From the NCBI GenBank assembly GCA_030583725.1, contig CP129472.1:334958-398957 (forward strand): DNA of 64,000 bases, written 5' to 3'. A program made the translations under genes and the position numbers. Positions 12,864 to 30,308 of this stretch are shown here, one piece after another (the first letter of the stretch is position 1; each line of letters begins with the position of its first letter). The notes under the pieces are model-generated. The model worked only from the letters and a program-made list of their open reading frames with translations, was not told the origin of the DNA and did not search any database. Source of the DNA: a bacterium (lineage in GTDB: Bacteria > Patescibacteriota > Microgenomatia > UBA8517).

Positions 12864-12909
12864 ATACTAACTTTAGTCTTTGAAGCTACTTTTTTCAAGA
12901 TAGAAAAAC

Positions 12910-14811
12910 TTACTGGAGTTTGAGGTTTGTGGCACCCGAGAGGTTAAGTCTTGAAAGAGCTGAAAGAAAGTAAGAATCGTCACATTTATTGACAAGGTCT
13001 GCAAGTTTATCAATTGGCCATAAAACTATTCCTTCGTCTTCTTCAAATTTATCTCCACTTTTGACGTCTTTATAAAGCTCATCTGACAAGTCTGCTATAA
13101 CTGCATATAAGTTTGGTTTATTGTTTGTCATACCAGAATCTGGATTAAGTCTCCCTAATGAAATTATTTGGTCTAGTGTTACATCTTTTTTAGCTACATC
13201 CAAGTTTAAATCTTTCTTCAACGACCTAACTATGAAATCAAGTACAGATTCATTTAGTTGTGGGAATCCACCTGCAAGTGAATATTCAACTGCTCCTGTA
13301 GCAAACTTCTTTTCTCGCTGTGTTGCTAAGTGGGTTATTTTTCCATTTCTTTTAATTAAAATTAAAAGTTTCGCGCCTGATTTTGGTCCCCAACCCCACG
13401 AATAGTAACCCTCCATTCTCTTTTTACCTTTTTTATCATCAACTTCAAACCATGAACCTATACCATATATACCAAATTCTGGATTAGCATGTTCTATCTT
13501 AGATAATTTTTGAATTACATCACCGTTTAAACGGTCCTCCCTACCTGCTAAGTCCTCAACGTAACCAAATGTAGATGGATTTATACCCAAAGTTTTAATT
13601 TCATCCTTTATAGCTTCAGAACTATTTTGATACCATTTTTTGCTTTCTAAATTTTTAATAACAATTTCATATCTAACTAAATTTTGTTCTACAAAGTGTT
13701 CATCAGTATCTACCTTCTCTGGCACCTTACCATTATCTTCAACCTGACCAAAAACAAACTTTGTTTTCCCAGAATCTCTATCAAGTGATATGTAAGCAGA
13801 GATTGACTTGGACCTATCCATTATCATTGCCTTCCTTTTAAGAAGTGGTCTCCACCAATCCTGATTATCTTTATACCACTTTATGGTTTCTTTAAGTCCT
13901 TCATTAAAATTATCTCTTGTGATTTCAGGTTTCCAACCCAGCTCCTCAATAATCTTTGTCGCATCAATAGCATATCTTCTATCATTACTGTGTCTGTCTG
14001 AAACATGCCTAATCATGTTTTGATTTGCACCATACAAATCTACAACTTTCTCTGCTATATAACCATTACTCCTATCATTATTCGATCCAATTAAATAAGT
14101 TTCGCCTGACCTACCCTTCTTTAGGATTAGATCAACTGCAGATGAGTGATCTTTGGTGTGTATCCAATCACGAACATTTCTTCCATCACCATGGAGTGGA
14201 ACTTTTATATTATCTATTAAATTAGTAACTACTATTGGGATAAACTTTTCAGGGAACTGGTATGGGCCGTAGTTGTTTGAACAGTTGGAAATTGTTATAT
14301 ACATTCCTGTCTTTTGATAAAAATCTAAAACTATTTTATCTGCCTCTGCTTTTGATAAGGCGTATAAGTTATCAGGTCTTGGTGAATAAGGAGTTTTTTC
14401 TGTAAATCTGGCGTCAGAATCCAGTGGAAGTTCACCATACACTTCATCAGTTGAAATATGGTGAAACCTGGTAATTCCAGCTTTGTTAGCCTCCTCAAGG
14501 AGGGTAAGCGTACCATGCACATTAGTTTGCCAATAAGTAGACGGGTCAAAAATTGCCCTATCAACATGACTTTCTGCAGCAAAATGAACAACAGCGTCCA
14601 CACCTTTTAAACTCTGAGAAACACTTTTGCGATCATTAATGTCTGCTTCTGCAAACTCTATATTCTTAATTACAGGAGTTAAGTTTTCAATATTACCTGC
14701 ATAAGTTAAAGAATCTATAACTTTTATTTTGTCTTTTGGATATTTTTTAACCCAATAATGCACAAAGTTTGATCCAATAAACCCCGCTCCACCTGTTACT
14801 AATATTTTCAT
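12910..14811 (-). CDS. rfbB: dTDP-glucose 4,6-dehydratase (RmlB) fused to a ~300-aa C-terminal Nudix-like domain
   Basis: The N-terminal 330 aa are canonical RmlB (MKILVTGGAGFIGSN, YxxxK region). The C-terminal extension contains GFPQLNESVLDFIVRSLKKDL, a degenerate Nudix box. Confidence 0.85.
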   Translation of the reverse strand: MKILVTGGAGFIGSNFVHYWVKKYPKDKIKVIDSLTYAGNIENLTPVIKNIEFAEADINDRKSVSQSLKGVDAVVHFAAESHVDRAIFDPSTYWQTNVHGTLTLLEEANKAGITRFHHISTDEVYGELPLDSDARFTEKTPYSPRPDNLYALSKAEADKIVLDFYQKTGMYITISNCSNNYGPYQFPEKFIPIVVTNLIDNIKVPLHGDGRNVRDWIHTKDHSSAVDLILKKGRSGETYLIGSNNDRSNGYIAEKVVDLYGANQNMIRHVSDRHSNDRRYAIDATKIIEELGWKPEITRDNFNEGLKETIKWYKDNQDWWRPLLKRKAMIMDRSKSISAYISLDRDSGKTKFVFGQVEDNGKVPEKVDTDEHFVEQNLVRYEIVIKNLESKKWYQNSSEAIKDEIKTLGINPSTFGYVEDLAGREDRLNGDVIQKLSKIEHANPEFGIYGIGSWFEVDDKKGKKRMEGYYSWGWGPKSGAKLLILIKRNGKITHLATQREKKFATGAVEYSLAGGFPQLNESVLDFIVRSLKKDLNLDVAKKDVTLDQIISLGRLNPDSGMTNNKPNLYAVIADLSDELYKDVKSGDKFEEDEGIVLWPIDKLADLVNKCDDSYFLSALSRLNLSGATNLKLQ

Positions 14812-14816
14812 AATTT

Positions 14817-15707
14817 TTAAATCTCTAAACTCTTGAGGTAATCTCTAAATTTACCATTTAAATCTTTGTGTTTTAGTGCAAATTCAACAACTGTTTTTAA
14901 GTATTCTAATTTATTGCCAGTGTCATAATATTTACTATTCTTAATTTCTTTTACATATACATCTATATTATCCTTCAACATCAGTTTAATAGGATCATTG
15001 TAGTAAAGCTCATCACCTTCCTTTAAATTATCTTTTGCAATTTCTAAATATTTAAAAATCTCTGGGGTAAACAAGAAGCCTGAAACATTTGCAATATCTG
15101 AAGGAGAATTTTCTCTTCCAGGTTTTTCTATAATAGTGTTTACTTTGATTAAACCATCCTCAACTGTTTCTCCACCCGCAAAGCCATATCTGTCATAATC
15201 TTCATCCTTCGTAGCTTTAATTCCAGCTAGAACACTTCCACCATATTTTTCGTAAATTGAAATTAACTGTTTAAACCTGTTTGGTTCAGCCACGATAAAA
15301 TCATCGCTCCATGTATAAATAAATGGTTCATCTCCAATTAAATGTTTGACATTTAATAGTGGTGTCCCATTTCCATATGGTCCCTTTTGCCTTATGTAGA
15401 CAAAGTTTGCCATATTTGATATTTTTTCCACTTCCTCTAGTAGATGCTTCTTTTTCTCCCCTCCCATTTTTAAGTTTTCAATCAAGTCTAGGTTTGGAGC
15501 ATCAAAATGGTCTTCAATTCCTCGCTTGTGGTAACCAGTTACTATAAAAATGTCTTGTATCCCAGCTTCAACTAATTCTTCCACCACATACTGAATGACA
15601 GGTTTATCCACAATAGGAAGCATCTCTTTAGGCATTGCCTTAGTTTGGGGTAGAAATCTTGTTCCAAAACCAGCTGCTGGAATTACTGCTTTTGTTACTT
15701 TTTTCAT
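14817..15707 (-). CDS. galU: UTP--glucose-1-phosphate uridylyltransferase (GalU family)
   Basis: VIPAAGFGTRFLPQTKAMPKEMLPIVDKPVIQYVVEE is the GalU signature; length 296 aa. Confidence 0.85.
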   Translation of the reverse strand: MKKVTKAVIPAAGFGTRFLPQTKAMPKEMLPIVDKPVIQYVVEELVEAGIQDIFIVTGYHKRGIEDHFDAPNLDLIENLKMGGEKKKHLLEEVEKISNMANFVYIRQKGPYGNGTPLLNVKHLIGDEPFIYTWSDDFIVAEPNRFKQLISIYEKYGGSVLAGIKATKDEDYDRYGFAGGETVEDGLIKVNTIIEKPGRENSPSDIANVSGFLFTPEIFKYLEIAKDNLKEGDELYYNDPIKLMLKDNIDVYVKEIKNSKYYDTGNKLEYLKTVVEFALKHKDLNGKFRDYLKSLEI

Positions 15708-15738
15708 ATACTTAAGTGTGAAAAGAATTATACTAGGA

Positions 15739-15999
15739 CTAAGTTCTAAAAATCAAGGTAAAGACCATAACTAGACCCAATATAGCCACGGAAAAGTACT
15801 CTAAAACTATAGACAAACATATATCTTTGTGGAGTGTATGGTGTATTATTCCCCAAGACACATAAGCTGAGGCCATTGCAACAGCCACCCCAATTTGAAA
15901 AAATCTGTCAAAAGAAAAAACATAGAAGCCAACAATTCCTGCAATAAAAATGGTAATTAGAGAAAAATAGTGTGGTAGATGTTTTAAATGTTTTTGCAT
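15739..15999 (-). CDS. small membrane protein (2-3 TM)
   Basis: An 86-codon ORF with hydrophobic helices. Confidence 0.35.
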   Translation of the reverse strand: MQKHLKHLPHYFSLITIFIAGIVGFYVFSFDRFFQIGVAVAMASAYVSWGIIHHTLHKDICLSIVLEYFSVAILGLVMVFTLIFRT

Positions 16000-16020
16000 T
16001 TCTTTAAATAATATATATTT

Positions 16021-16962
16021 TTATAATATCTGACCTGATTTAAGTATTATAATAATTGACAAAACCATACCTAAAAAGGCAATGTGGGCAAATGTTCTAC
16101 CAGTTAGTCTTGTTATCCTTCTTTTTGAAACTAAAATTGCATCAACCATAAAAACTAGAAGTAGTAACCCAACCACAATTAAGGATGCGTTTCTTGTTGT
16201 GGTAAACGGCGAAACTAAAACTTGCTGATCTGGGTTTGGAGTTACAATAACTGCAGGAATAGTTTCAATTTCAGGAACAGTAATTGAAGTAGGTGTTGCT
16301 TCTACTATTGGGGTAGAAGTAGGAACTGTGGTAGTAACAGTATTGGGTAAGCTAGTAACCTCCGTACTTACAGCCTGAGCAATTGGCTCTCTAACCTGGT
16401 CTGCGTAGGTTGCACCAAAAAACTGAACTATTATTGTAGTATCAGATCCTGCCAAGTCACCCTCAACTACCCCGACACCTATATCTTTATATTTTGGGTT
16501 TAAAATATTATCCCTATGCGTTGGAGAATTCATCCAAGCTTCAACTGCAGAATTTGCATTAGAAAAATCCCTGGCCAAGTTTTCCCCCGCATATCTGTAT
16601 TTATAGCCAGCATTATTAAAAAAGACCCAAGGCTGTGTACCATCTGGGGCAGTATGTGCCCAATAATCTTTATTTATCATGTCGACACCCTTAACATAGG
16701 CAGCATTTGATAATGTTTGATTTAAACTTAAAGCAGGTAGCCCTGCTTGGGCTCTTTTTTGATTTGTTAGATTAACAACGTCTTGAATAGAAATATTTGA
16801 TGCATATCCTAAAATACTGGGGTTAATCTTAGGAATATAGTTAAGAACAGCCTGAAATATAATCATCAAACAGGCAATAACTATCAGACTTGATGAATGC
16901 AAAATCTTGGCTTTGTGGTTATTGGTGTCTCGAGGCACTAACAAATGAATTAACTTCTCCAT
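16021..16962 (-). CDS. CAP/SCP/YkwD-like extracellular domain protein, membrane anchored
   Basis: An N-terminal TM helix, then a CAP-domain pattern (NQKRAQAGLPAL...YWAHTAPDG...GENLA...AWMNSPTHRDNIL), a Thr/Pro-rich linker and a C-terminal TM helix. Confidence 0.75.
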   Translation of the reverse strand: MEKLIHLLVPRDTNNHKAKILHSSSLIVIACLMIIFQAVLNYIPKINPSILGYASNISIQDVVNLTNQKRAQAGLPALSLNQTLSNAAYVKGVDMINKDYWAHTAPDGTQPWVFFNNAGYKYRYAGENLARDFSNANSAVEAWMNSPTHRDNILNPKYKDIGVGVVEGDLAGSDTTIIVQFFGATYADQVREPIAQAVSTEVTSLPNTVTTTVPTSTPIVEATPTSITVPEIETIPAVIVTPNPDQQVLVSPFTTTRNASLIVVGLLLLVFMVDAILVSKRRITRLTGRTFAHIAFLGMVLSIIIILKSGQIL

Positions 16963-16989
16963 AATTCATCATAACATACCTAGTAACTA

Positions 16990-18987
16990 TCAAGTAAGAT
17001 TGGTTCTAATGCGACGTATATACTTAAAAATCAACTTTCTTTTTTGTATTATTTTTAAAGTTAAGTATAAAAACAATAAACCCACAAAAATATAGATCAT
17101 TTTCATAATCATTGAATTTCCACTAGCTTCCGTCGATTCTCCAAAAACTTGAGGGTCACCAGATTCATCATCTTCATAAGCTAATAAAACAGGTGTTGTA
17201 TTGAAAAATGCCGTATTATAGCCGGAAATTATAAAGCTTGATTCAGATTCTGCTGATATTTCATCCTCTCCTGGTCCAACTACTCCATAGCCTGTAACTT
17301 TAGCAACATATAACCCTGGCACTGCCCTTCTGGACATTACAAGACCTGTTGATAGTCTAACAGTCTTTTGTGCATCGATATCTCCAAGATCAAAATGACT
17401 TCCACCATAATTTATTCCATCTCTATATAGCTCAATTTTAAGTTTTGCACCATAAACTTTTCCATAACCTACATTTTTGATTCTGGCTTGAAAAGTAATC
17501 GTATCACCCGGAAATACATATGCCCCTACATTATTAGTATGAGTTACTTCCAAAACCCCTCCGCTTTCTTTTTCTGATTGTTTGGTTTCTTCCTCAGTAG
17601 TTGGTTGGGGAGAAACATCAGGCGAAACTTCTTCAAACATGCTTGTCCCCCCAACATCGCCTACTAATGTCCCAAAAATATTGATAAATCCTATAAACCC
17701 TTGGGAATTAATTATGTTTGTGTTTACAAGGTTTACAAGCGATATACTGTTATATGCATTGCCTGTTTTTATATCTCCGTCTTCACTGTTTACAATCTGG
17801 TTATTTCCGGTATTTGAATTTGAACTGATATTATTATTAACAATTGCAGTATTTGTACCCGTCATGGCATTTGAACTACAATAAACACACCCACCACCTT
17901 GTAAAATTAAACCATTTTGGCCAGAATCAATTGCTAAGTTATTATCAGTTTGGGCGGGTTCATCCATCCAGCCTAAGAAATCTCCTATCCAAACTCCTAG
18001 TGTATTAATATATAAATACCTAAAAACGGTATCGACTATGTTGGTATTTACTATGTTTACGACATTTACAACACTTTGAGAGTCACCTGTTTCAATACTT
18101 GATAAACCATTACCGATAGTTGAGTTTTCACCAGTATTTGAGCTAGATGATATGTTGTTATTAACAGACGCATCACTGGATAGATCAATATTAGAACTAC
18201 AGCTCACACAAGAACCAGAATCTTTATATTCAGGAAGTATTATATTTCCTGTTAAGTTGCCAAAAATATTTATAGTCACCAAATGAACTTTTGAATCAAC
18301 TACGTTTGTATTTACATTATTAAGTACAGAAACGACAGAATATGCATCCCCTGTTTGAATATTTGAACTCAACCCATTTTCAACAGTGTTACCACCAGTA
18401 TTTGAGCTTGAAGAAATATTATTTTCAACATATGCATAATTTTCAATATATGAAAAATTATTAGAATCAGTTACTTTGACAGATATATTTTCGGATAAGT
18501 TATTGTCAACTCCATATACTTTGTTGATGACATTAGAAGTTAAACTTGATAGATTAATATTGCCTGATTCTGGAAGATATATATTTAAAGTGTGGTATAC
18601 AAACTCTGAATTTATAATATTTGTATTGACATTATTTTCAACCTCAACAACTGATACAGCATCTGAGGTAACTATTTCAGAAACAGGTGTTGGAGATGGT
18701 TCGCTACTTGGACTTGGAGATTCATCAATATTGTAAATAACAACTACGTGACTTGGTTCTGGAGTTGGGGACGCTAAGACTTCAATTGTATTTTCGCCTG
18801 TATTTGATGTGTCTGTTATATCATTAATAACTTCTGCAGTGTTTTCAATCTCAATCTCAGAAGTTACTGTAGCCTCAGGTGTGGGACTTTCTAAATCTTC
18901 TTGGGCATATATCAAAACAGGAAAGATATTTGTAAAACACAACAACAATACAACTACTATATTTATTACTCTTTTTATTTTTTTCAT
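16990..18987 (-). CDS. large secreted/cell-surface repeat protein with C-terminal TM anchor
   Basis: A signal peptide followed by about four ~85-aa tandem repeats of the form NNISSSSNTGxN...TGDA...V.VxNxVNTNIVDS, then a C-terminal TM helix and basic tail. Confidence 0.65.
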   Translation of the reverse strand: MKKIKRVINIVVVLLLCFTNIFPVLIYAQEDLESPTPEATVTSEIEIENTAEVINDITDTSNTGENTIEVLASPTPEPSHVVVIYNIDESPSPSSEPSPTPVSEIVTSDAVSVVEVENNVNTNIINSEFVYHTLNIYLPESGNINLSSLTSNVINKVYGVDNNLSENISVKVTDSNNFSYIENYAYVENNISSSSNTGGNTVENGLSSNIQTGDAYSVVSVLNNVNTNVVDSKVHLVTINIFGNLTGNIILPEYKDSGSCVSCSSNIDLSSDASVNNNISSSSNTGENSTIGNGLSSIETGDSQSVVNVVNIVNTNIVDTVFRYLYINTLGVWIGDFLGWMDEPAQTDNNLAIDSGQNGLILQGGGCVYCSSNAMTGTNTAIVNNNISSNSNTGNNQIVNSEDGDIKTGNAYNSISLVNLVNTNIINSQGFIGFINIFGTLVGDVGGTSMFEEVSPDVSPQPTTEEETKQSEKESGGVLEVTHTNNVGAYVFPGDTITFQARIKNVGYGKVYGAKLKIELYRDGINYGGSHFDLGDIDAQKTVRLSTGLVMSRRAVPGLYVAKVTGYGVVGPGEDEISAESESSFIISGYNTAFFNTTPVLLAYEDDESGDPQVFGESTEASGNSMIMKMIYIFVGLLFLYLTLKIIQKRKLIFKYIRRIRTNLT

Positions 18988-19067
18988 CCTAGTATTATTT
19001 ACTACGCACCTCCTCAGGTGGGAGATGATTTTAAATCTCCCACCCGAAAAGTAAGTGATTTAATTAC

Positions 19068-19493
19068 TTAATCACCTGTAACAGTTGTATTAACTGTGCT
19101 TTCGATAACAGATGTTGCTATTGCATCACCTGTACCTATCATGCCTCGTCTGACATACTTTCCACTGATAGAATTATCACCGGAATCTGCCTTGACTTCG
19201 ACATTGTTTCTAACCCTAGCCATATTTTTAACGGATAAATCTCCGTCACAACCACAGCCTAAATCGTTTGTATTAACTACATTGACTAAAGTGCTCATGG
19301 CATCTGCTATGCCAGTTAAAATTCTGCCTCCGCCTACATACTTTCCACTGATAGAATTATCACCGGAATCTGCCTTGACTTCGACATTGTTAGTAACTCT
19401 TCCATAATTTCTTACAGAAGTGTCATCAGAGCTTCTTCTATGATATGCCATTACAGGAACGACAAACATCATAACCAAAGCGCCTGAAATCAT
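19068..19493 (-). CDS. small secreted repeat protein from the same repeat family as the 665-aa surface protein
   Basis: Starts MISGALVMMFVVPVMA (a signal/TM helix) and has two copies of RV(T/R)NNVEVKADSGDNSISGKYV...TGDA...VNTN. I trimmed the ORF-track start because the upstream 38 codons are antisense to the ftsX repeat copy. Confidence 0.5.
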   Translation of the reverse strand: MISGALVMMFVVPVMAYHRRSSDDTSVRNYGRVTNNVEVKADSGDNSISGKYVGGGRILTGIADAMSTLVNVVNTNDLGCGCDGDLSVKNMARVRNNVEVKADSGDNSISGKYVRRGMIGTGDAIATSVIESTVNTTVTGD

Positions 19494-19497
19494 TAAA

Positions 19498-19890
19498 CTT
19501 AAAGCTTTTAGTTCATACTTGCGAATAGGCGGAATTGTTTTTGTAGGAGCTCTGGCTGTAACTTCATTCTTTGTACTTTTGGTGATTGTCAGTATGAGAA
19601 TGACCACGAGAAAAGGAGAAATTGAAATATTAAGTCTTATTGGTGCAACTCCAGCTTTTGTCAGAAGTCCAATTGTTATTGAGGGTTTAATATATGCAAC
19701 AGTGGGTGTAGTAACAGGTTGGGCATTATCACTAATTCTTTGGCTTTATGTCTCAGCTCCGATACTTAACTATTTTGGACAAGTTCCAATTTTACCAAGA
19801 GATCCTTTTTACTTCTTTATGCTTTTCTTAATAATTTTAGGTATCGAGTTGATGGTTGGGTTAGTAATTGCACTAACCGGAAGTTTAATA
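19498..19890 (+). pseudogene. 3' fragment of ftsX (codes for the last ~131 aa of FtsX minus the final 9), one arm of a ~393-bp perfect inverted repeat
   Basis: The translation of ORF 19519..19917 is identical to FtsX residues LRIGGIVFVGALAV...LTGSL. The nucleotide sequence 19498-19890 is the exact reverse complement of 23322-23714. Confidence 0.8.
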
Positions 19891-19929
19891 TTCGCTTTTT
19901 TATTTGTCAATAGTTAAATACTATGAGAA

Positions 19930-20937
19930 TCAAACCTGGTTATAGCCTTTTGGATGGGTTTTATAACCATTTGGGTTGGTTTTATGCCAAAGAAGTGCAG
20001 TTTCAATAATTTTTTCTATATCATATTTTGGTGACCAATTAAAATCTTTTTTTAATTTTTCATTTGAAGCATATAATTCATTAGCATCCCCTTCTCTTCT
20101 TGGCCCATACTTTACATTGACTTTTAAATTACTTAACCTTTCTATTTCTTCTATAATTTGGTTGTTTGAATAACCACGGCCCAAACCAACATTGTAGACA
20201 TTACTCTTTTTATTTTTTACTAAAGATTGTAGCCCCATTTCATGAACTTCAACTAAATCAAGTACGTGGATATAGTCACGAACACAAGTACCATCGGTGG
20301 TTTCATAGTCATTACCAAATATTTCCACTTCTTGGTTATTTAAAGCTTTAACAATTATATTTGGTATTAAATGGCTTTCTTCCATATGCGCCTCTCCAAT
20401 TGTGCCATCTAGTGATGCACCAGAAGCATTAAAGTATCTAAAAGACATATATTTTAAACCGTAGGCCAAGTCATAGTCATCTGCCACCCTTTCAAGAATG
20501 TATTTTGTTTCTCCGTATGGATTAAGTGGGTTTTTAAGGTCATCTTCTTCAATTGGTACTCTCTCAGGATTTCCATATACACCTGCAGAAGAAGAAATAA
20601 TTAAATTTAAACAATTATTCTCAATCATAGTATCCATAAGATTTAAATACCCAACAACGTTATTACGATAATACTTTGATGGATTATTAAATGATTCACC
20701 CATTTGAATAAAACTGGCCATATGAACAACACCATCAAATTTTTCTTTCTGGAATAATTCGTCTAGTTTTTGTTTTTCAGTTACTAAATCAATTTTTTGT
20801 AAATCAAAATCTTTTACTGCTTCGGGGTGCCCACCTGACAGGTTATCCACAATCACAACACTGTGTCCTTTTTCTTTAAGTTCTCTAACCATAAAAGAAC
20901 CAATGTAACCTGCCCCACCTGTTACTAATATTTTCAT
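19930..20937 (-). CDS. galE: UDP-glucose 4-epimerase
   Basis: MKILVTGGAGYIGS, YxxxK and other NAD-dependent epimerase motifs; length 335 aa. Confidence 0.85.
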   Translation of the reverse strand: MKILVTGGAGYIGSFMVRELKEKGHSVVIVDNLSGGHPEAVKDFDLQKIDLVTEKQKLDELFQKEKFDGVVHMASFIQMGESFNNPSKYYRNNVVGYLNLMDTMIENNCLNLIISSSAGVYGNPERVPIEEDDLKNPLNPYGETKYILERVADDYDLAYGLKYMSFRYFNASGASLDGTIGEAHMEESHLIPNIIVKALNNQEVEIFGNDYETTDGTCVRDYIHVLDLVEVHEMGLQSLVKNKKSNVYNVGLGRGYSNNQIIEEIERLSNLKVNVKYGPRREGDANELYASNEKLKKDFNWSPKYDIEKIIETALLWHKTNPNGYKTHPKGYNQV

Positions 20938-20945
20938 TTTTTTTA

Positions 20946-21368
20946 TTATTTAACTATCTGATATTTTGTATAAAAATCCCGAATCACCTTTGGCATATTT
21001 TTAATATTTTCTATTATACCAAATAAGGCAAAACTGGCCCCAATTGTATCAATTAAAACATCGCGAAATGCAGGACCTCTACCCGGTACAAATGACTGAT
21101 GATACTCATCACTAACTGCATATAAAAATGAGATTAAAACGGATAACCACATAGCTTTTTTACTTTTAACTTTTGAATTTATTAGAGCCCTATATAACAG
21201 TGTCGACAATATCGCATACTCCACAAAATGAGCAGATTTTTTAAAAATAAAATCCCACAAGTAAAACTTAGTTGTCGTAACTGTAGGGATACTTGAAAGA
21301 GTAAATATCAAACCAGCCCAAAGTAAAACTGGCAACCAGAATTTAGTCAATTTTTTGTTCTTTAACAC
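20946..21368 (-). CDS. VanZ-like membrane protein
   Basis: About 140 aa with 4 TM helices and a VanZ-like layout. Confidence 0.5.
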   Translation of the reverse strand: MLKNKKLTKFWLPVLLWAGLIFTLSSIPTVTTTKFYLWDFIFKKSAHFVEYAILSTLLYRALINSKVKSKKAMWLSVLISFLYAVSDEYHQSFVPGRGPAFRDVLIDTIGASFALFGIIENIKNMPKVIRDFYTKYQIVK

Positions 21369-22137
21369 GTCTTTGATTATATATCATATAGCCCACATAT
21401 CCCAGACAAGAGACTCCAAGTAATATGAAAATAATTGCAGCTAGTGGTGTTTTTTTAGTATCTGTTGCTCCAGCTACTAAACCCTCTGGTGTAGATTCAA
21501 CTATTTTAATATCAGCGTCAGAAATCAAATTTATAGGTTCGTTTGTTTCCTCAGATTCTTCAGTTGGAGTTGGCTTGGGGGTTGATGTTTTAGTAGGTGT
21601 TGGTTTGGGGGTTGGAGTTGGAGTTGGTGCAGTAGTTGGTTGGCTAGTTGGTTGTGGAGTTGAAGTAGCTGTTGGGGTCGGTATGGGTGTAGGATCTGGA
21701 TTTTGTAATCCTTGAGTTATTACACTCGTAATTTGCCAATTCTCACTTCCGTTTGGTACTCTTGCATAAACTTTGTTTGAATCCACGGCGGTATATGTGT
21801 ATTGATCGATAATTACTTGTGGCAACTGATTATTATATAATTTAATTGTGTCACCACCGTTATTTAGCCAACCCTCCGACCTCTGAAAAACAATATAACC
21901 AAGTGGTTCTATCACCCCTGAAAGTAAAATATCATCCTTTGAATTTGAGTTGCCATCCTCCAATAAATACCCACCGAGATCTATTTGATTTGAGCTTTCA
22001 TTATATAACTCTACCCACTCAGGGTCTGTTGAGGGAGAGAACTCATTTATCACAACCTGTGAAAAAACATATTTTGGGTAAAACAAAAACAAAAAACCAA
22101 CAGCAGATAGTAAATAAACAACTTTTGCTGTTTTCAT
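21343..22137 (-). CDS. lamin-tail-domain (LTD) protein with Pro/Thr-rich linker and C-terminal TM anchor
   Basis: A signal peptide, then the LTD signature VINEFSPSTDPEWVELYN, a PTPTPTPKPTPT linker and a C-terminal TM helix. Confidence 0.65.
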   Translation of the reverse strand: MKTAKVVYLLSAVGFLFLFYPKYVFSQVVINEFSPSTDPEWVELYNESSNQIDLGGYLLEDGNSNSKDDILLSGVIEPLGYIVFQRSEGWLNNGGDTIKLYNNQLPQVIIDQYTYTAVDSNKVYARVPNGSENWQITSVITQGLQNPDPTPIPTPTATSTPQPTSQPTTAPTPTPTPKPTPTKTSTPKPTPTEESEETNEPINLISDADIKIVESTPEGLVAGATDTKKTPLAAIIFILLGVSCLGYVGYMIYNQRRVKEQKID

Positions 22138-23295
22138 TTATTGCAAATGCAAATAAAGAGACATTTTCCCGTTAGGGTGAAATATTCGTACGTTATTACC
22201 AAAAGAACTAGATCCACGGTAGAAATAAGCAACACCATCGTCTAAGGCTCTAATTATTCTATCTGCACTATCAACCATATCTAGACCGTGGTGAAAATTA
22301 CCAGAATAGACGTAGGAATAGGGAGTATTACCATAACATTGAGTTATTCTGGGGTTTGTCATGGGCCAAGGTAGTGAACCAGACCCTATACTCTTAGTTT
22401 GTGCAGTTTGTACATCATTACAAGACAAAGCATTAAAATATAAACTTCGTGAAGCTAACAAGTTTGTGGGTGACTCGTGTTTTGTAGCATACCATCCGAT
22501 ACTGCCACTATACTCCTCGTTGTGTTGTGACTCTGTTAGGTTATATAAACCGAAGTGTAGATGTGCACCGGTTGAAAATCCTGTATTACCCATAACTCCA
22601 ATTGTTTCACCTTTTTTAACGTCCTTTTTGCCTGTAAATTGTGAACTGGATAGAGCTTCTAGTTCTCTTCTTGCTAAATCCAACAGCTCAGAATACTTCT
22701 TTTCATCGTTTTTAGTAACTGCCAACAAGTTTGCTTTCTGCTGTTTTTGATTGGCCAATTGCCTCTGTTGACTTGCAAGCTGTTCTTGTAGTTCTTCCTG
22801 ATCTGTTTTTTCTTCTACGTAAGTGTCTTGTGCTTTCTGGAGTCTATCAAGTAAACTTTTATCTCCATCCTGAATTTTTTTAAGATATGAAAATCTACTA
22901 AAAACTTCATTTAAATTACTTGAGGCTGCTAAAAGTAAAAATGGGTCACCAACACGAGCCATTTTATATGTTTCTTTGGCTCTTTCATTAAAGGCAATAT
23001 TTAATGATTCAATTGAGCCACCAATTTGATCAATTCTGCCTGACAACAAACTAATTTGCTCTTCTGTTTGCTGTACTTTTAAAGTTGTCAAAGTAATCTG
23101 GGCATCGAATTGGTTTATTTGACTAGAAAGCGTTTTGCTTGAGTCTTTCAACTTAGAAATGTTGGCCTCATAACAACTGATTCTTGACTGCACATCACCA
23201 CTACACTCTTGGGCGCTAACTTTTAAAACAGTTGAGAGAATTAGTGGTGTAAAAGCAAAGAAAAGCGATGTAAATATTATTATTTTATTTCTCAT
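22138..23295 (-). CDS. EnvC/PcsB-like coiled-coil M23 peptidase (FtsEX-associated murein hydrolase activator/hydrolase)
   Basis: A signal peptide, a long coiled-coil, and a C-terminal M23 LytM domain (GNTGFSTGAHLHFGLY). It lies immediately downstream of ftsEX. Confidence 0.8.
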   Translation of the reverse strand: MRNKIIIFTSLFFAFTPLILSTVLKVSAQECSGDVQSRISCYEANISKLKDSSKTLSSQINQFDAQITLTTLKVQQTEEQISLLSGRIDQIGGSIESLNIAFNERAKETYKMARVGDPFLLLAASSNLNEVFSRFSYLKKIQDGDKSLLDRLQKAQDTYVEEKTDQEELQEQLASQQRQLANQKQQKANLLAVTKNDEKKYSELLDLARRELEALSSSQFTGKKDVKKGETIGVMGNTGFSTGAHLHFGLYNLTESQHNEEYSGSIGWYATKHESPTNLLASRSLYFNALSCNDVQTAQTKSIGSGSLPWPMTNPRITQCYGNTPYSYVYSGNFHHGLDMVDSADRIIRALDDGVAYFYRGSSSFGNNVRIFHPNGKMSLYLHLQ

Positions 23296-24206
23296 ATTTT
23301 TTTAAGTGATCGTTTGACAGCTATTAAACTTCCGGTTAGTGCAATTACTAACCCAACCATCAACTCGATACCTAAAATTATTAAGAAAAGCATAAAGAAG
23401 TAAAAAGGATCTCTTGGTAAAATTGGAACTTGTCCAAAATAGTTAAGTATCGGAGCTGAGACATAAAGCCAAAGAATTAGTGATAATGCCCAACCTGTTA
23501 CTACACCCACTGTTGCATATATTAAACCCTCAATAACAATTGGACTTCTGACAAAAGCTGGAGTTGCACCAATAAGACTTAATATTTCAATTTCTCCTTT
23601 TCTCGTGGTCATTCTCATACTGACAATCACCAAAAGTACAAAGAATGAAGTTACAGCCAGAGCTCCTACAAAAACAATTCCGCCTATTCGCAAGTATGAA
23701 CTAAAAGCTTTAAGCCTGCCTACAACATCCCCCAGTGATTGTTCCCCACCAATGTTTGCAGTAAAGCCAACTTCCTCAACAACTGCTTCTGACTTGACTT
23801 CACTAATTACAGCCTCAGCCAAATCAAGATCAGTGACTGAAAACTCTAAAGAAGCTGGAAAAATTGAAGGACTAACTAACTCAGAAAGAAGTGGATTATC
23901 TTCTGTTGCTTTTTTATAAATTTCAAGAGCTTCCTCTTTGGGCACATATTTAACATCTTTAATTCTTAAGTCTTGGCTTAACTTATTTTGCAAAGCAAAA
24001 ACTGCTTCTTGTGTAGCATCATTTTTCAAAAAAGAAATAATTTGTGGCCTAGTTTCAAAATAATTTAAAGACTGGTTTGAGGCATAGACTAAAATAGCAA
24101 CTGTGGTAGCCACAAAAAAAGTTAAAGTTAAAACAAAAATTGCAGAAATTGCCTGAAACGGCGATCTCTTAATTGAGTCGATTGCTGTTTTTGAATGTAT
24201 TCCCAT
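23292..24206 (-). CDS. ftsX: cell division ABC transporter permease FtsX
   Basis: Follows ftsE with a 4-nt overlap and has the 4-TM FtsX topology with a large extracellular loop. Confidence 0.85.
   Translation of the reverse strand: MGIHSKTAIDSIKRSPFQAISAIFVLTLTFFVATTVAILVYASNQSLNYFETRPQIISFLKNDATQEAVFALQNKLSQDLRIKDVKYVPKEEALEIYKKATEDNPLLSELVSPSIFPASLEFSVTDLDLAEAVISEVKSEAVVEEVGFTANIGGEQSLGDVVGRLKAFSSYLRIGGIVFVGALAVTSFFVLLVIVSMRMTTRKGEIEILSLIGATPAFVRSPIVIEGLIYATVGVVTGWALSLILWLYVSAPILNYFGQVPILPRDPFYFFMLFLIILGIELMVGLVIALTGSLIAVKRSLKKI
23322..23714 (-). repeat. second arm of the ~393-bp perfect inverted repeat (the intact ftsX 3' end)
   Basis: The exact reverse complement of 19498-19890. Confidence 0.85.
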
Positions 24207-24233
24207 ATAGTTATTAAAAAAATTTAAATACCT

Positions 24234-24887
24234 CTATTTCCCAGCTGCTTTGCCATCTTTTAATTCTATCACTCTATGCTTACCATGTTTAATAATACCC
24301 TCGTGATGAGTAGCCATAATTATTGTTTTACCTTCTTTGTTTACTTTTTCTAAAAGATCCATTATACCTTCTGCAGTATCCCAATCTAGGTTGCCGGTAG
24401 GCTCATCAGCTAAAATTAGTTTTGGATTGACCACTAATGCGCGAGCAAGGGAAACTCTTTGAAGCTCTCCACCAGAAAGTTGTGAGGGAAATAGTCTTGC
24501 CCTGTTTGACAGCCCAACAAGTTTTAAAACATGGTCAACTCTCTTTTGCCATTCCTCTTGGGGTGTATTTGAAACCGCCAAAGCAACCTCAACGTTTTCT
24601 GAAACAGTTCTTTCAGACAACACTTTAAAATCCTGAAAAACTATACCCATCTGCTGACGTAGAAGTGGTATGTCGCTTGCTCTAATTTCAGAAAGATCGT
24701 TTCCATCAAAAACTACTTTACCTGAGTCTGCTATCAAATCTCTTAAAATTAATTTTAGAATCGTTGTTTTCCCTGCACCAGAAGGACCTGTTAAAAAAAC
24801 AAATTCGCCATCCTTGACTTCAAATGAGATTTTGTCGAGGGCTTTTATAGATCCAAAGGATTTAGAAACATTTTCAAATTGTATCAT
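24234..24887 (-). CDS. ftsE: cell division ATP-binding protein FtsE
   Basis: Walker A GPSGAGKTT, LSGGELQR signature, Walker B ILADEPTGNLD; length 217 aa. Confidence 0.9.
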   Translation of the reverse strand: MIQFENVSKSFGSIKALDKISFEVKDGEFVFLTGPSGAGKTTILKLILRDLIADSGKVVFDGNDLSEIRASDIPLLRQQMGIVFQDFKVLSERTVSENVEVALAVSNTPQEEWQKRVDHVLKLVGLSNRARLFPSQLSGGELQRVSLARALVVNPKLILADEPTGNLDWDTAEGIMDLLEKVNKEGKTIIMATHHEGIIKHGKHRVIELKDGKAAGK

Positions 24888-25399
24888 TCAATAACTTTAA
24901 TTTTACCCACATCAATCAACCAACCAGCTTTCTTACCTGAAATTGTATCCCCCCAAATTCTGACCTTTTTACCAACAAATTTATCCAAGTCAACAGAAGT
25001 TGAAGTTAGATAAGCGTATTGAGAAGGACCTACACCCCTAACCAAGTGGTGTGTACCTTCATCTGCAATTCCACCTTCTTCTAAAAGACCATCAGCAGTA
25101 GATGCAAAAATTGATTCGTCTGCAACCCCCGCCTCATTTTCAGAAACAATTATTGTCTGCTCCTTCGAAATGCTTAAAAATCCGTCAGAATCTTTACCAG
25201 CACCTGACAATAAATAACCTGCGCCTATGCCTAGTAAAACTACTGTAATAGAAATTAAAGCAAGAATGATATTTTTCTTGGATTGATTTTGGCCACTATT
25301 GGTTGTGCTAAATTGCTTAACTACAGATGCGGACCTTTGGACTGGATTTAAAGTAGATTCCATATCATTAAAACTACCATAATTGAGAGTGTCAAACAA
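24884..25399 (-). CDS. hypothetical membrane-anchored protein
   Basis: A 171-codon ORF with a single TM helix. Confidence 0.4.
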   Translation of the reverse strand: MFDTLNYGSFNDMESTLNPVQRSASVVKQFSTTNSGQNQSKKNIILALISITVVLLGIGAGYLLSGAGKDSDGFLSISKEQTIIVSENEAGVADESIFASTADGLLEEGGIADEGTHHLVRGVGPSQYAYLTSTSVDLDKFVGKKVRIWGDTISGKKAGWLIDVGKIKVIE

Positions 25400-25407
25400 G
25401 AGAGAAA

Positions 25408-25767
25408 TTATTCTGTTTCTATTGGGCTTGAGGTTGGCAACACAACAACTTCGGCACTGACTGTCGCTGTTGGCTCATCTGAAGACTCTGCTGTCGGCGA
25501 TGGAGATGGAACCATAGTTGGCTCTGGTGTAACTTGAATATTTATTAACTCTTCATTCTTCATTCTCAACTCTGTCACCAATTGTTGTGTTTGATAGGCA
25601 AAAAAGCCAGCCATTAAGGTTGCAAGAATTAAAAGGATTGAAAGCAATGATACTAAAAAACTACCTCCTTTTGTTTTTACTGGTTCTGGGTTTACTACCT
25701 GAGGAACACTAACTTCAGGTTCTGGATTACTAATTACTGGTACTTCTGGTGTTTGATTTTCTTGCAT
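25408..25767 (-). CDS. hypothetical single-TM protein with short coiled-coil (FtsB/FtsL-like topology)
   Basis: A TM helix followed by LVTELRMKNEEL and Pro-rich tails. Confidence 0.35.
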   Translation of the reverse strand: MQENQTPEVPVISNPEPEVSVPQVVNPEPVKTKGGSFLVSLLSILLILATLMAGFFAYQTQQLVTELRMKNEELINIQVTPEPTMVPSPSPTAESSDEPTATVSAEVVVLPTSSPIETE

Positions 25768-25806
25768 AAATTAACTATACCACAGTTTTAATTTTTATTC
25801 TGCTTC

Positions 25807-26862
25807 TTAAATTTTCAACTCGGCATTTATAAATTCATCAAGTTCACCATCAAGAACTGCATCTGGATTTCCTGATTCCACCTCTGTTCTTAAATCCTTA
25901 ACCATCTTATACGGATGTAACACATAACTTCTGATCTGGTTTCCCCAACTTGCAGGTTTATAATCCCCTTTAATATCTTTTAATTGGTTCTTTTCTACTT
26001 CTTGTTGCCTAATCCATAATTTTGCACGAAGTAACCCTAATGCAATTTTTCTATTTTGTTCTTGAAATCTTTCAGTCCTTGCAGTAATTACAATTCCTGT
26101 CGGAATATGCGTAAGCCTAACTGCAGTGGACACTTTATTAACATTTTGTCCTCCATGCCCACCAGCCCTCGTAAATTGCCAATCAAGTTCTTCATCTTTA
26201 ATCTGTATCTCAGGTAAATCAGTAGCTTCCAAGTCTGGCAAGACTTCAACCAAAGCAAATGATGTTTGCCTTAAATCATTTGCATTAAATGGCGACTGAC
26301 GGACAAGCCTGTGTGTTCCTGATTCTTTTTTTAAATAACCATATGTATATTTACCCTTTACCTCAAAAGTTACACTTTTTAAACCAGCTTCTTCACCTGC
26401 TGTTGAGTCAATGGTTTCAGTTGTATAGTTTTTTCTTTCGCAGTATCTTAGATACATTCTAAAAAGCATTGCGGTCCAGTCCATAGCTTCGGTTCCACCT
26501 TGACCCGCGTGAATTGTAATAATTGCATTTTTAGTATCATATGGACTCGAAAGGTATGACTTTGTTTCAAGTTTTGATATTATTTTTGAGGCTTTTGATA
26601 ATTCTGTGGGATCCTCAACTTCATTTAAAATTTCAATCGTAGCTGAAATGTCTTCTATCTCATCCAACTCTTCTTTTAAATTTGATAGATTTTGAAGGAC
26701 AGTTTTGGCATTATTCTGGTCATCCCAAAGACTTGGATCAGTTGACAAGCTTTCCAATTTTTTCAACTCCGCTTCTTTTTTGGGAATATCTAAAACCTCT
26801 TTTAACTTGTCTAATCTCTGGGTTAGTTCTTCAATTGTTACTTCTTCGCTCATGGAGTACAT
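25807..26862 (-). CDS. prfB: peptide chain release factor 2
   Basis: The RF2-specific SPF tripeptide (RQSPFNAN) and GGQ motif (GGHGGQNVNKVSTAVRLTHIPTGIV). The ORF is uninterrupted, with no +1 frameshift site. Confidence 0.9.
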   Translation of the reverse strand: MYSMSEEVTIEELTQRLDKLKEVLDIPKKEAELKKLESLSTDPSLWDDQNNAKTVLQNLSNLKEELDEIEDISATIEILNEVEDPTELSKASKIISKLETKSYLSSPYDTKNAIITIHAGQGGTEAMDWTAMLFRMYLRYCERKNYTTETIDSTAGEEAGLKSVTFEVKGKYTYGYLKKESGTHRLVRQSPFNANDLRQTSFALVEVLPDLEATDLPEIQIKDEELDWQFTRAGGHGGQNVNKVSTAVRLTHIPTGIVITARTERFQEQNRKIALGLLRAKLWIRQQEVEKNQLKDIKGDYKPASWGNQIRSYVLHPYKMVKDLRTEVESGNPDAVLDGELDEFINAELKI

Positions 26863-27284
26863 ATTATAGCCTTTATTTTTTTCATTTCATCTGGGTTTAA
26901 ACTTTGTAAAACATTTAAAGCATCATCAGTTGTCGGGTTACTAGCATAAGATGATGGTATTTCGTCCGTGACACCCAGAACATCTACCAATTTGCCTCTG
27001 CCTATATCTAGCGCTGCGGTAATTGGTTTTGGAGCATTTTTCCAACCTAAAATCTCAGTAATTGCAGTTCTTCCTGCAATTAATAAAAATCCTTCCAAAA
27101 GCAATGTCAACAAAAATCCAAAAAAAATACCTAAAAAGACACCATCTATTGATGACTTGACAAAAATTTTGCGTATATATCCAAAAACCACAACTGCCAA
27201 AAACACCAAAACAATAATTAACCCTGCCTTAATATGACCTTGGCTCCAACTGATGTTTGAAATATAACTTAAGATATTTTGCAC
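26850..27284 (-). CDS. hypothetical membrane protein
   Basis: A 144-codon ORF with 3 TM helices. Confidence 0.4.
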   Translation of the reverse strand: MQNILSYISNISWSQGHIKAGLIIVLVFLAVVVFGYIRKIFVKSSIDGVFLGIFFGFLLTLLLEGFLLIAGRTAITEILGWKNAPKPITAALDIGRGKLVDVLGVTDEIPSSYASNPTTDDALNVLQSLNPDEMKKIKAIICTP

Positions 27285-27337
27285 AATTTAATTATATACT
27301 AGTCAAACCAGTTTGCTACTTTTGTAGGTTAGTAGAG

Positions 27338-28018
27338 TTATAAAGGTGTGGAAGTTGGGGTTGCTGAAGGCTTTGGTGTGCCTGAGGCTTGAGGTGTGGC
27401 CGTACTAGCAGGTTTTGATGTTTGACTACCTCTAAGCCCAGTAATTACTACAACATCTGATTTTTGAGTTGTAGAGGTTTTTACATTTACTTCTTTATAG
27501 AAACTTTCTAATTCTTTTTTGAGTTCATCTTGAACTGTTTTAGACAAACTACTTAAAAAGGTAACTGTTGTAATTGTGTTATTTGTTGAATCTGCATTTC
27601 CTGATGTTATATCACTGTAACCTAGAGTTTTTAACTTATCTGAAAGTAATTTTGCTTCCCCTGTTATACCAGTACCATTTAAAATCTCTATCGAAACTTC
27701 AGACTTATTAACAGGTGCTGGTGTTGATGTTGGAGATGGAGTATTTTGTGGTTCGTCAATAGGAACAATTCCAAATGATGGAGTAGGTGTTGCTATTGGT
27801 TCACTACTAGTTTTTGAAAAGAAATAAATACCAGCTCCACCTAAAACTAATAAAAGTATAAAAATTATTAACCACTTGGAGTTAGAATTTTTTGCCCTGT
27901 TGGAAGATGATTGAAAATCAGATGCCTGAGGAGGTCCTTGCTGAGCTACTTCGTTCTGTGTTATTTGGTCTTCCATCGTTGTCGGCGCAGTATACCTATA
28001 ACTTATGGGTATTGTCAA
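27338..28018 (-). CDS. membrane-anchored LytR_C (LytR/CpsA/Psr C-terminal) domain protein
   Basis: A TM helix, a Pro/Thr-rich segment, then IEILNGTGITGEAKLLSDKLKTLGY... Confidence 0.5.
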   Translation of the reverse strand: MTIPISYRYTAPTTMEDQITQNEVAQQGPPQASDFQSSSNRAKNSNSKWLIIFILLLVLGGAGIYFFSKTSSEPIATPTPSFGIVPIDEPQNTPSPTSTPAPVNKSEVSIEILNGTGITGEAKLLSDKLKTLGYSDITSGNADSTNNTITTVTFLSSLSKTVQDELKKELESFYKEVNVKTSTTQKSDVVVITGLRGSQTSKPASTATPQASGTPKPSATPTSTPL

Positions 28019-28029
28019 GTGTAGTCTTA

Positions 28030-29130
28030 CTAATCAAGGTCAACAAGCTTACTTAGTTTCTCCATTAAAATGGAGTAAAACCTAAGGTTATGTATCGTGG
28101 CTAATCGGCCCGCAGTAAAATCACCAATTTTAAATAGGTGGGCCAAATACCCTCTAGTATATCTTTTACAGGTCAGGCAATCACAAGCTTCTGAAACTGG
28201 TTCGTTGGAACTTAAGTTTTTAGTTTTTGCTGGAACATAAAACTCGTAGAAATCTTTTTGAGATACATCTATCTCATCTATTGTTTTTGCGTTATATATA
28301 TACATTCTGCCGTGCCTTGCATCTCTAGTTGGCAGAACACAATCAAAAATTGTAAAGCCTTGGCCAACTAAAGTTACAATATCTTCAGGCTTCCCTAACC
28401 CTAGTCCATATAGTAAATAGTTTTTGGGGCTGTTATTGGCAATAACTTTGGACATTTCATAATTTATACCCTTGTCTCCTTTGCCATCTCCACCATAACC
28501 CAAACCATCAAAGCCTATTTTTACTAGTTCTTGTGTACAATACTTTCTTAAGTCAGCAAACCTACCACCTTGAACAACCCCTAAAATAAGTGGTCTTTTA
28601 CTTGTTGGTATTTTTTTTGCCTTACATATTTTTTCAAATTCATCTTTACTACGTTTGGCCCACATAATAGTCCTATCAACTGATATCTCGGTTCCTTTTT
28701 TAGTACCACCAAACAAATCAAAGTCATCCAATACAACCACCATATCAACACCTAGTTCCATTTGAATTTGTATGGATAGCTCAGGTGTTAGTAGTATTTT
28801 TTTACCATCTAGTTTAAATAAAGCTCCCTCGTCAGTAATTTTTCCCAAATTTGGGTTTGATTTTATTAAACTTCCAACTTGAAACCCCCCTGAGTCTGAA
28901 ATCATGGCACCATCCCAATTCATGAACTTTTTAATCCCACCTATTTTTTTGATGAAGTCTAATCCCAACTCTTTGTATAAATGGAAAGTATTAACTAATA
29001 AACCTGTTGTTTTTGTTTCTTCAATATCTCTGGTATCAAGTGATTTAAGTACTGCCCTAGTAGCATCAGGAAAGAATACTGGTAAAGAAACATTACCATT
29101 GGCAGACCGAAAATATTTAGGAGACGTCAT
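28030..29130 (-). CDS. tgt: queuine tRNA-ribosyltransferase
   Basis: The FFPDATRA start, the D-SGGFQ catalytic region and the zinc site CDCLTC...H. Confidence 0.9.
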   Translation of the reverse strand: MTSPKYFRSANGNVSLPVFFPDATRAVLKSLDTRDIEETKTTGLLVNTFHLYKELGLDFIKKIGGIKKFMNWDGAMISDSGGFQVGSLIKSNPNLGKITDEGALFKLDGKKILLTPELSIQIQMELGVDMVVVLDDFDLFGGTKKGTEISVDRTIMWAKRSKDEFEKICKAKKIPTSKRPLILGVVQGGRFADLRKYCTQELVKIGFDGLGYGGDGKGDKGINYEMSKVIANNSPKNYLLYGLGLGKPEDIVTLVGQGFTIFDCVLPTRDARHGRMYIYNAKTIDEIDVSQKDFYEFYVPAKTKNLSSNEPVSEACDCLTCKRYTRGYLAHLFKIGDFTAGRLATIHNLRFYSILMEKLSKLVDLD

Positions 29131-29756
29131 TTGTTACCCAGAGTTATGACAAAATCATAAGGACTTGAAGCAGGCAATGTTTCAGTCTCAGTAGAAACTT
29201 CATAATCTTCTGAAAGATCTTTAATTAAAGATTCCAAAAGTTCTTTTTTGTCACTTTTGACAGATATTACAGTTTCTTCAAAATTTGAACTAGAAGCATT
29301 ACCCACAGCTACATTCTCATAGCCTAGACCTTCTAGCATTGTTTTGGCTTTACCAGCAAAACCTGCAATTCCACTACCATTTAAAACTTGTAATTTAACT
29401 ACTGATCTATCAAATTCATCCTCTTCTTCTGTTTTAACTTCTTCCTCCACCTCAGGAGTAGCAACTACAACAGGAGATGGTAAAGCTTCCACACTAGAAA
29501 GACGAGACAGGCCTGAGAAATAAGTAATTAAACCTCCAACAAATGCGCCAACTAAAAGCGCTGTTGGGACTATAATCCAGAGGTAATTTGTTTTTTCTGT
29601 TTCCTCAACTACAATTTCTTCACTTGAAGGCTCTTGATCCTCAACTTTAACTGTTTCTGGTTCACTTTCTGGCTTCTCCAATTCATTCTCTTCAACGGGC
29701 TCAGCTATTTCCTCAACTACTACCATTTTTTTCTTCTTATCTTCTTCTTTTGGCAT
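29127..29756 (-). CDS. membrane-anchored LytR_C domain protein with acidic N-terminus
   Basis: An acidic, low-complexity N-terminus, a TM helix, then LQVLNGSGIAGFAGKAKTMLEGLGY... Confidence 0.5.
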   Translation of the reverse strand: MPKEEDKKKKMVVVEEIAEPVEENELEKPESEPETVKVEDQEPSSEEIVVEETEKTNYLWIIVPTALLVGAFVGGLITYFSGLSRLSSVEALPSPVVVATPEVEEEVKTEEEDEFDRSVVKLQVLNGSGIAGFAGKAKTMLEGLGYENVAVGNASSSNFEETVISVKSDKKELLESLIKDLSEDYEVSTETETLPASSPYDFVITLGNK

Positions 29757-29777
29757 ATACTTATATTAACATACTTT

Positions 29778-30308
29778 TCAAATTTTTGTTGCATCGTAAG
29801 CCCAATGAACAAGTGTTTGTCTTTGTTTCTTCCTGCAATCTAAATCATGAGGCTTACAGTTGTTTTTAAGTTGTACTAAGTGTCTTTTAATAGCTACCCA
29901 TCTTTTTATTTGTTTTTCGTCCTCACCTTTTATCCTCCTACCCATAAAGTATCTACAATACCACTGGAACCAACCCCTAGGATCTTCTCTATATATCCAG
30001 CCCTTATTTCTCCACACAGACAAAGGCTGGCTGGCATTCACTTTAAAAAAATTAAGACCTGGGTCATGAAATTCGTGACATAACTTTGCATTTTTATACC
30101 AGTCTTTTGGAAATTCACCCCCACAATCAGTCATGTATTTACCACCAAAAACTCCCAAATAAAGCATCTCCTTTGGTGTAAGTTCTGGTTTAAAACGAGG
30201 GTCAAAGTGCTTACCTATTGGCTCAGTTAAATAATAAACGTAGCCCTTTTGCATTACATCATTAACAACAACTTTTTTACCACCATATGGCAAGCTCTGC
30301 TTATTCAT
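29778..30308 (-). CDS. hypothetical Trp/Cys-rich protein
   Basis: A 176-codon ORF. Motifs such as WFQWYCRYFMGRR suggest conservation, but I do not recognise the family. Confidence 0.45.
   Translation of the reverse strand: MNKQSLPYGGKKVVVNDVMQKGYVYYLTEPIGKHFDPRFKPELTPKEMLYLGVFGGKYMTDCGGEFPKDWYKNAKLCHEFHDPGLNFFKVNASQPLSVWRNKGWIYREDPRGWFQWYCRYFMGRRIKGEDEKQIKRWVAIKRHLVQLKNNCKPHDLDCRKKQRQTLVHWAYDATKI

Follow-up and report, generated by a model that had tools for sequence, protein, structure and literature searches.

A probable recent, strain-specific inverted duplication of an ftsX segment in a Woesebacteria bacterium

The inverted repeat and the genes it brackets

The DNA analysed here, called the window throughout, is a 64-kb stretch from a single strain of a Woesebacteria bacterium, a member of the candidate phyla radiation (CPR). 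Within it, a block of envelope genes that follows the division genes ftsE and ftsX is flanked by two long inverted copies of a part of ftsX, and it is the nature of this repeat that is considered below. When the whole window was searched for inverted repeats with a 14-nt seed and a minimum length of 40 nt, a single pair was found: positions 19498-19890 (left arm) and 23322-23714 (right arm) are exact reverse complements over 393 nt (100% identity), with a spacing of 3431 nt. On its length and identity, such a match cannot be due to chance. A perfect inverted repeat around galE, VanZ, lamin-tail-domain and EnvC-like M23 genes had been reported in an earlier note on this DNA, and both the repeat and, by Pfam, the bracketed genes were borne out.

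All real genes around the repeat are on the minus strand, according to the list of open reading frames (ORFs) and Pfam. The intact ftsX (23292..24206; 304 aa) encodes a protein with FtsX_ECD and FtsX domains, and ftsE, which encodes its ABC ATPase partner (24234..24887; Pfam), lies upstream. Downstream of ftsX is the gene of an EnvC-like coiled-coil M23 peptidase (22138..23295; Pfam), whose ATG overlaps the ftsX TGA stop and which stands directly after ftsX in all relatives. Then follow the genes of a lamin-tail-domain (LTD) protein (21343-22137; Pfam), of VanZ (20946-21368; Pfam) and of a GalE-type UDP-glucose 4-epimerase (19930..20937; Pfam), the last being the last intact gene between the arms. 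The inter-arm segment (19891..23321, 3431 nt) holds these four genes, the last nine ftsX codons, and a 5' stub of a gene for a small secreted protein. The body of the small gene, which encodes a two-repeat protein with the family motif ADSGDNSI and lacks a native start, lies beyond the left arm (19068..19497, minus strand), followed by the gene of a 665-aa secreted protein (16990-18987, minus strand; ORF list).

The right arm (minus strand) is the parental copy. It starts 492 nt (164 codons) past the ATG at 24206 and comprises exactly ftsX codons 165-295, both ends being in frame; it encodes the whole PF02687 permease domain with transmembrane segments TM2-TM4. The repeat had been described as the last codons of ftsX, but the final nine codons (27 coding nt) and the stop lie outside the arm. 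The left arm is an inverted, 100% identical copy that lies inside the small secreted-protein gene (repeat search, Pfam, and the excision described below). It carries the ftsX segment in sense on the plus strand, and its end is 39 nt from the galE stop.

The ftsX fragment and its reading frame

The copy in the left arm contains codons 165-295 only, with no parental start or upstream signals, and the sequence adjoining it on the 5' side is another gene in antisense, as would be seen in a gene fragment. Its open frame starts at a TTG and encodes 132 aa (19519..19917, plus strand), ending in FAFLFVNS before the stop. The last 27 nt are antisense to the first codons of the small gene, and FAFLFVNS, which has no charged residues, is the reverse complement of its first seven codons. 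The run of eight codons beyond the arm is accidental.

Both endings quoted in the earlier note, ...SLIFAFLFVNS for the truncated copy and ...SLIAVKRSLKKI for the intact gene, are right. The former had been taken for an alternative FtsX C-terminus that inversion would bring into frame, and this idea did not hold. A cassette switch would offer a functional alternative protein part, whereas the ending here is antisense to the split gene and lacks the basic tail that is universal among the relatives: all 122 of 122 full-length FtsX sequences end in an AVKRSLKK-type sequence with a net charge of +3 to +5 over the last ten residues. The NCBI record to which the window belongs, a MAG contig reached by homology search, annotates both copies, five genes apart, as FtsX (WKZ26057.1) and as a 105-aa "FtsX-like permease family protein" (WKZ26052.1); the latter would begin at 19600, inside the left arm.

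The small secreted-protein gene split by the left arm

The small protein has homologues of 150-160 aa, every one of which begins with M(x)KK and then has a hydrophobic stretch that ends in A. Read from the ATG at 19493, the protein of the window begins with MISGALVMMFVVPVMA and is without the basic head. This ATG had been regarded as the start of the gene, 5 nt outside the repeat; its distance from the arm is indeed 4-5 nt, but the gene has been split, and this Met is internal to it rather than its native start. In the NCBI annotation, the small gene is 179 aa long and starts from a GTG inside the arm (19607).

Deletion of 19498-19890 joins the minus strand in the order galE stop, 19 nt, and TTG ACA AAT AAA AAA GCG AA/T TTA ATG ATT..., the slash marking the join. 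The part before the slash is the detached 5' end of the small gene (19891..19910, minus strand; 19 nt past the galE stop) and reads (M)TNKKA(N). The frame with the arm deleted is that of a 148-aa in-frame protein, (M)TNKKANLMISGALVMMFVVPVMA/YHRR..., and its restored signal peptide, M-TNKKANLMISGALV..A, aligns with the M(x)KK...A homologues, in which Lys is present in at least 90% (16 and 12 sequences aligned). If the arm is left in, the native frame runs as IKLPVSAITNPT... and meets a stop within the inserted sequence after 33 codons. Removing the copy thus regains the interrupted gene, as is expected of an insertion remnant. Because the 148-aa protein obtained on removal of the arm is in frame and begins with a signal peptide typical of the family, the left arm would be a precise insertion between codons 7 and 8 that neither removed nor added target bases.

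The reconstructed uninterrupted junction between galE and the small gene is AAAAAGCGAA/TTTAATGATT; the predicted ancestral junction string is AAATAAAAAAGCGAATTTAATGATTTCAGG, and the strings of the insertion junctions are AAAAAGCGAATATTAAACTTCC and AAAGCTTTAAGTTTAATGATT. The uninterrupted junction was not found in the public contigs searched via GalE and small-protein homologues, among which none from a sister strain reaches across the site. The nearest GalE there is 82% identical, and the nearest homologue of the small gene (72%) stands in another context, after a sortase-like gene. A comparison by eye of the insertion junctions GCGAA/TATTAAAC and GCTTTAAG/TTTAATG with GACAGC/ and /CCTGCC, the flanks at the source, showed neither a target-site duplication nor microhomology. 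The small gene is restored in neither orientation of the block, and its body would be translatable only from an internal start. Two gene calls in the deposited genome are therefore doubtful: the 105-aa "FtsX-like permease" is a fragment, and the 179-aa hypothetical protein is a disrupted gene with its start inside the insert.

The repeat in independent assemblies

Independent data were taken from Logan k=31 assemblies, which were reached by exact-protein look-ups. Contigs L001 (SRR24881069) and L006 (DRR859381) are 3491 nt long each and equal window positions 19861-23351, comprising the inter-arm segment and the adjoining 30 nt (k-1) of either arm; one single-nucleotide polymorphism (SNP) in 3491 nt separates L006 from the window. 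Another contig of SRR24881069, L002, ends at 23685, 30 nt into the right arm. Contig breaks k-1 nt inside the arms are the hallmark of a genuine repeat node in the read graph. The junction of the arm with TTCGC..galE is directly present in these two runs, which come from different archives, and the junction on the side of the small gene is supported only indirectly. Exact-protein look-ups of FtsX and of the 141-aa small protein gave no records, and that of VanZ gave only the two contigs already known.

These data bear on the alternative, raised in the earlier note, that the repeat is an assembly artefact: a chimeric or mis-resolved join in a metagenome bin, the real genome being without a second ftsX piece. 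Exact repeats are classic sites of mis-joins. Moreover, the k=31 graphs end at the arms and cannot fix the orientation of the middle segment, and the left junction (19497/19498) is directly seen in the window only. Against this, the same 3491-nt contig, reaching 30 nt into each arm, is found in both runs, and the branch point of L002 is where the right arm starts. Unlike a random chimera, exact excision of the arm restores an in-frame start typical of the family, and the length of the source contig (841,695 bp) suggests a long-read or finished assembly. Since the assemblies of two runs break exactly at the arm edges and excision of the arm restores a coherent gene, an artefact is contradicted, and we regard it as extremely unlikely.

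Relatives and the age of the duplication

Relatives were collected by FtsX-based scans of GTDB genomes and of JGI/ENA metagenome contigs, with Logan contig L040 in addition, and their loci were compared by tblastn with the window proteins. This gave about 30 Woesebacteria loci with an FtsX identity of 61-88%. All loci of sufficient length have prfB-..-ftsE-ftsX-M23-LTD-VanZ(-galE) in colinear order on one strand. The order in the window is the same, and the orientation of its block is therefore ancestral. After galE or VanZ and before a conserved CAP-domain gene, the content varies between species and includes sortase-like genes and genes for very large surface proteins.

The duplicated 3' fragment of ftsX, whose presence in related genomes had been raised as a point to check, is found in 0 of the approximately 30 loci; tblastn gave no second FtsX match in them, with flanks of up to 10 kb. 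The closest relative is a strain represented by contig L003 (SRR22388160), with 99.54% nucleotide identity over 1966 nt. Three of its nine SNPs are inside the arm, and the contig was assembled across both arm edges to 23284 with no break. As it is unbroken through the arm, this 99.5% sister strain is probably without the second copy. A contig with 92% nucleotide identity (L039) likewise passes through the arm.

Among the alternatives named in the earlier note, these absences favour a recent duplication. From the nucleotide differences, the duplication would be younger than the 0.5% split but older than the 0.03% split. Recency alone would lead one to expect zero differences in 393 nt, because the carriers differ by one SNP in 3491 nt; the identity of the arms reflects recency and is no evidence of selection.

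The identity of the arms could also be read in another way, namely that the duplication is older and that ongoing gene conversion has homogenised the arms, which would imply frequent recombination and frequent flipping of the block. That the arms show 0/393 differences while the sister strain differs at three positions in the same stretch would fit such a process. However, the copy is apparently missing from the sister strain and from all more distant relatives, and the near-identity of the carriers makes conversion superfluous. An old, homogenised duplication is thus quite unlikely.

Origin of the duplication

We consider it likely that the repeat is a recent, strain-specific inverted segmental duplication, in which an internal 393-nt piece of ftsX was copied in reverse into the small gene downstream of galE. 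The event may have been a one-off illegitimate break-repair or template-switch event that inserted a captured ftsX segment. Alternatively, a staggered-break inversion may have duplicated the staggered stretch and then have been flipped back via the new repeats. The junctions are blunt, and either route would lead to the same sequence. The outcome is a promoterless ftsX fragment without its 5' part, a disrupted small gene, and perfect 393-nt inverted repeats flanking a 3.4-kb block.

Several observations weigh against this reading or limit it. The precise insertion has been reconstructed from the reading frame, the length and the N-terminal motif, rather than observed as an allele. Before the proposed TTG start no Shine-Dalgarno sequence can be seen, although most genes of the window likewise have none. 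The orientation in the window, or the co-existence of both orientations, is not readable from k=31 contigs that end at the arms. The window assembly and the Logan contigs of SRR24881069 may derive from the same reads. Finally, the absence of the copy from the sister strain is seen in one short, low-coverage k=31 contig, and lost junction k-mers could hide a branch.

Both proposed routes have described counterparts. Staggered breaks leave inverted duplications at inversion breakpoints in Drosophila (Ranz et al. 2007, PMC1885836), and inverted duplications by foldback or template switching have been described in yeast (PMC10622511). The present case differs from the former in that the block is in its ancestral orientation, which requires a second flip, and from both in that the junctions are without microhomology; the cited models are, besides, eukaryotic. 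No bacterial case of such an inverted duplication was found in the literature searched. In other respects, the case resembles inverted segmental duplications and gene-fragment remnants in general: a partial, inverted gene copy lies a few kilobases from its parent, is identical to it and specific to a lineage, has disrupted the sequence in which it landed, and is accompanied by no dedicated enzyme. The event thus belongs to a kind already known.

The locus may serve as a worked example of how a striking perfect repeat around envelope genes can be recognised, from public assemblies alone, as the scar of a fresh rearrangement. A practical consequence is that assemblies of this Woesebacteria lineage may set the orientation arbitrarily at the repeat.

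Inversion of the block and its consequences

Perfect inverted repeats of 393 nt are a sufficient substrate for general (RecA-type) homologous recombination. Because the arms are long enough for it, occasional inversion of the block by this pathway is plausible. The geometry of such an inversion was described correctly in the earlier note: the M23 peptidase would part from ftsEX, and the tails beyond the arms would be swapped. We infer that cells with the inverted block would be at a disadvantage, because ftsEX would no longer be coupled to M23, the basic tail of FtsX would be lost, and the promoter of the small gene would read antisense into ftsX.

It could be argued that the arrangement is a reversible functional switch, in which the 3.4-kb envelope block is flipped as the arms recombine, so that the population contains two states of the cell envelope or of division. 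Such a switch would toggle the operon coupling of ftsEX and M23, the C-terminus of FtsX, and transcription into the small gene. The length and perfection of the repeats are adequate for it, the block does contain envelope genes, and the repeat is seen in two runs. If the duplication arose by staggered breaks (PMC1885836), the present ancestral orientation would even mean one flip back or more in the past. Yet the copy is missing from about 30 relatives and probably from the 99.5% strain, the alternative FtsX tail comes from the antisense of the first codons of another gene and lacks the basic residues that are universal there, and the small gene is regained in neither orientation. A flip would also break the ftsX-M23 junction, which is universally conserved and, in this genome, overlapping. 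Moreover, no invertase was found within about 10 kb of the block. A functional or programmed switch is not supported by any sign at the locus, and we hold this reading to be very unlikely.

Recombinases were sought in the precomputed Pfam annotation of 6990-19182 and 23685-34272 and in scans of the remaining ORFs, and no recombinase family was found save one. The exception, a large serine recombinase (53982-55337), was considered as the flipping enzyme and rejected, for it is 30 kb away, beside tRNA-Glu, in a tRNA-flanked island. The promoter scan was at the level of chance (19 found, 20.8 expected), and the promoter/terminator scan showed no terminator-like site after galE. A single ftsEX-galE transcript that reads into the left arm would contain a perfect self-complement of 393 nt, and such mRNA is a possible RNase III target.

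RecA-dependent inversion between long homologous repeats is known from sapA of Campylobacter fetus, where silent cassettes provide complete functional alternatives that are swapped, and where the arrangement is conserved across strains. The present repeat is similar in that long identical inverted coding segments (hundreds of nt; here 393 nt, 100%) could be used for an inversion of several kilobases. It differs in that the alternative end is an accidental read-through of eight codons and in that the duplication is private to one strain lineage; instead of a conserved arrangement, the related loci are without a second fragment and the contig of the 99.5% strain crosses the arm.

Invertons, including intragenic ones that recode the ends of proteins, are made of short repeats and are flipped by site-specific invertases (bioRxiv 10.1101/2023.03.11.532203 / PMC10028968); for example, the thiC inverton was locked by mutating an 11-position repeat (PMC10028968). 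Inversion of the present block would similarly alter the C-terminal coding sequence of a gene as well as the transcription of its neighbours. In contrast to invertons, the arms here are a duplicated coding segment of 393 nt, no further inverted repeat stands out around the block, no recombinase lies at or near the element according to Pfam annotation and ORF scans, and the arrangement is not conserved.

It is conceivable, but a long shot, that the repeat is already recombining and that a measurable minority of cells carries the flipped block, which would be a newborn RecA-driven on/off variant of the division/envelope operon. In such cells, ftsEX would be uncoupled from the M23 hydrolase, the FtsX tail would be non-basic, and the small gene's orphaned promoter and start would read antisense into ftsX. 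If flipping were true, the locus would give a rare view of the origin of an invertible region before selection or a dedicated enzyme has acted on it.

Neighbouring genes and other features of the window

The arrangement of ftsE, ftsX and a coiled-coil M23 gene in direct succession is like that of an FtsEX-EnvC operon, and the order is kept across the Woesebacteria relatives. The difference is that the halves of the M23 domain appear here in swapped order. The Pfam M23 match of the EnvC-like peptidase (22138-23295) falls into two stretches: the half bearing HLHF (residues 219-253, profile positions 56-90) comes before the C-terminal HxxxD half (...FHHGLDM...YLHLQ at the stop). The domain looks circularly permuted with its metal ligands kept (HxxxD and HxH motifs, by eye), and the swapped order is also visible in an 88% relative (L011, 2934-4031).

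GalE ends in ...NPNGYKTHPKGYNQV, about 6-8 residues beyond most relatives, which are 325-331 aa long (window 19930-19980). Near-repeated codon strings at the 3' end of galE, CCAAATGGTTATAAAAC and CCAAAAGGCTATAACCA, suggest a small tandem duplication.

The small secreted protein contains an internal duplication with a period of 183 nt (84% identical) and the motif KADSGDNSI...TGDA...VNxVNT. Similar NTGxN / VNTN repeats occur in the adjacent 665-aa secreted protein, and the two genes are also found together in a distant relative (L037, 16059-18609). As to family assignment, the only match was a weak one to DUF4097 ("toastrack"). The 183-nt repeat likewise breaks the k=31 assemblies, at 19160-19182.

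Among the related loci, contig L007 (CAZSXP010000003.1) is titled "uncultured Gammaproteobacteria bacterium" and yet has a prfB-ftsEX-M23-LTD-VanZ block of the Woesebacteria type with 76% FtsX identity; its taxonomic label looks wrong.

The region 41070-55586 is probably an integrated mobile element that abuts tRNA-Glu (55512-55586, minus strand). Its genes encode an AAA_13 ATPase (43586-45874), a DUF4145 protein, a ParB_N-N6_N4 DNA methylase (46227-47555), an HTH_Tnp_1_2 protein, a second large DNA methylase (49742-52417) and the large serine recombinase mentioned above (53982-55337). The G+C content is 0.41-0.43 at 46-48 kb, compared with about 0.34 elsewhere. A further local G+C peak (0.476 against about 0.33), at 10001-11000, corresponds to a 239-aa ORF (10003-10722, minus strand) with no Pfam match. 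Lastly, a 141-nt unit occurs twice in direct orientation at 60042-60365, the copies being 183 nt apart with 98% identity; they are situated in a mostly non-coding stretch between tRNA-Gln (59791-59864) and a run of small ORFs on the plus strand.

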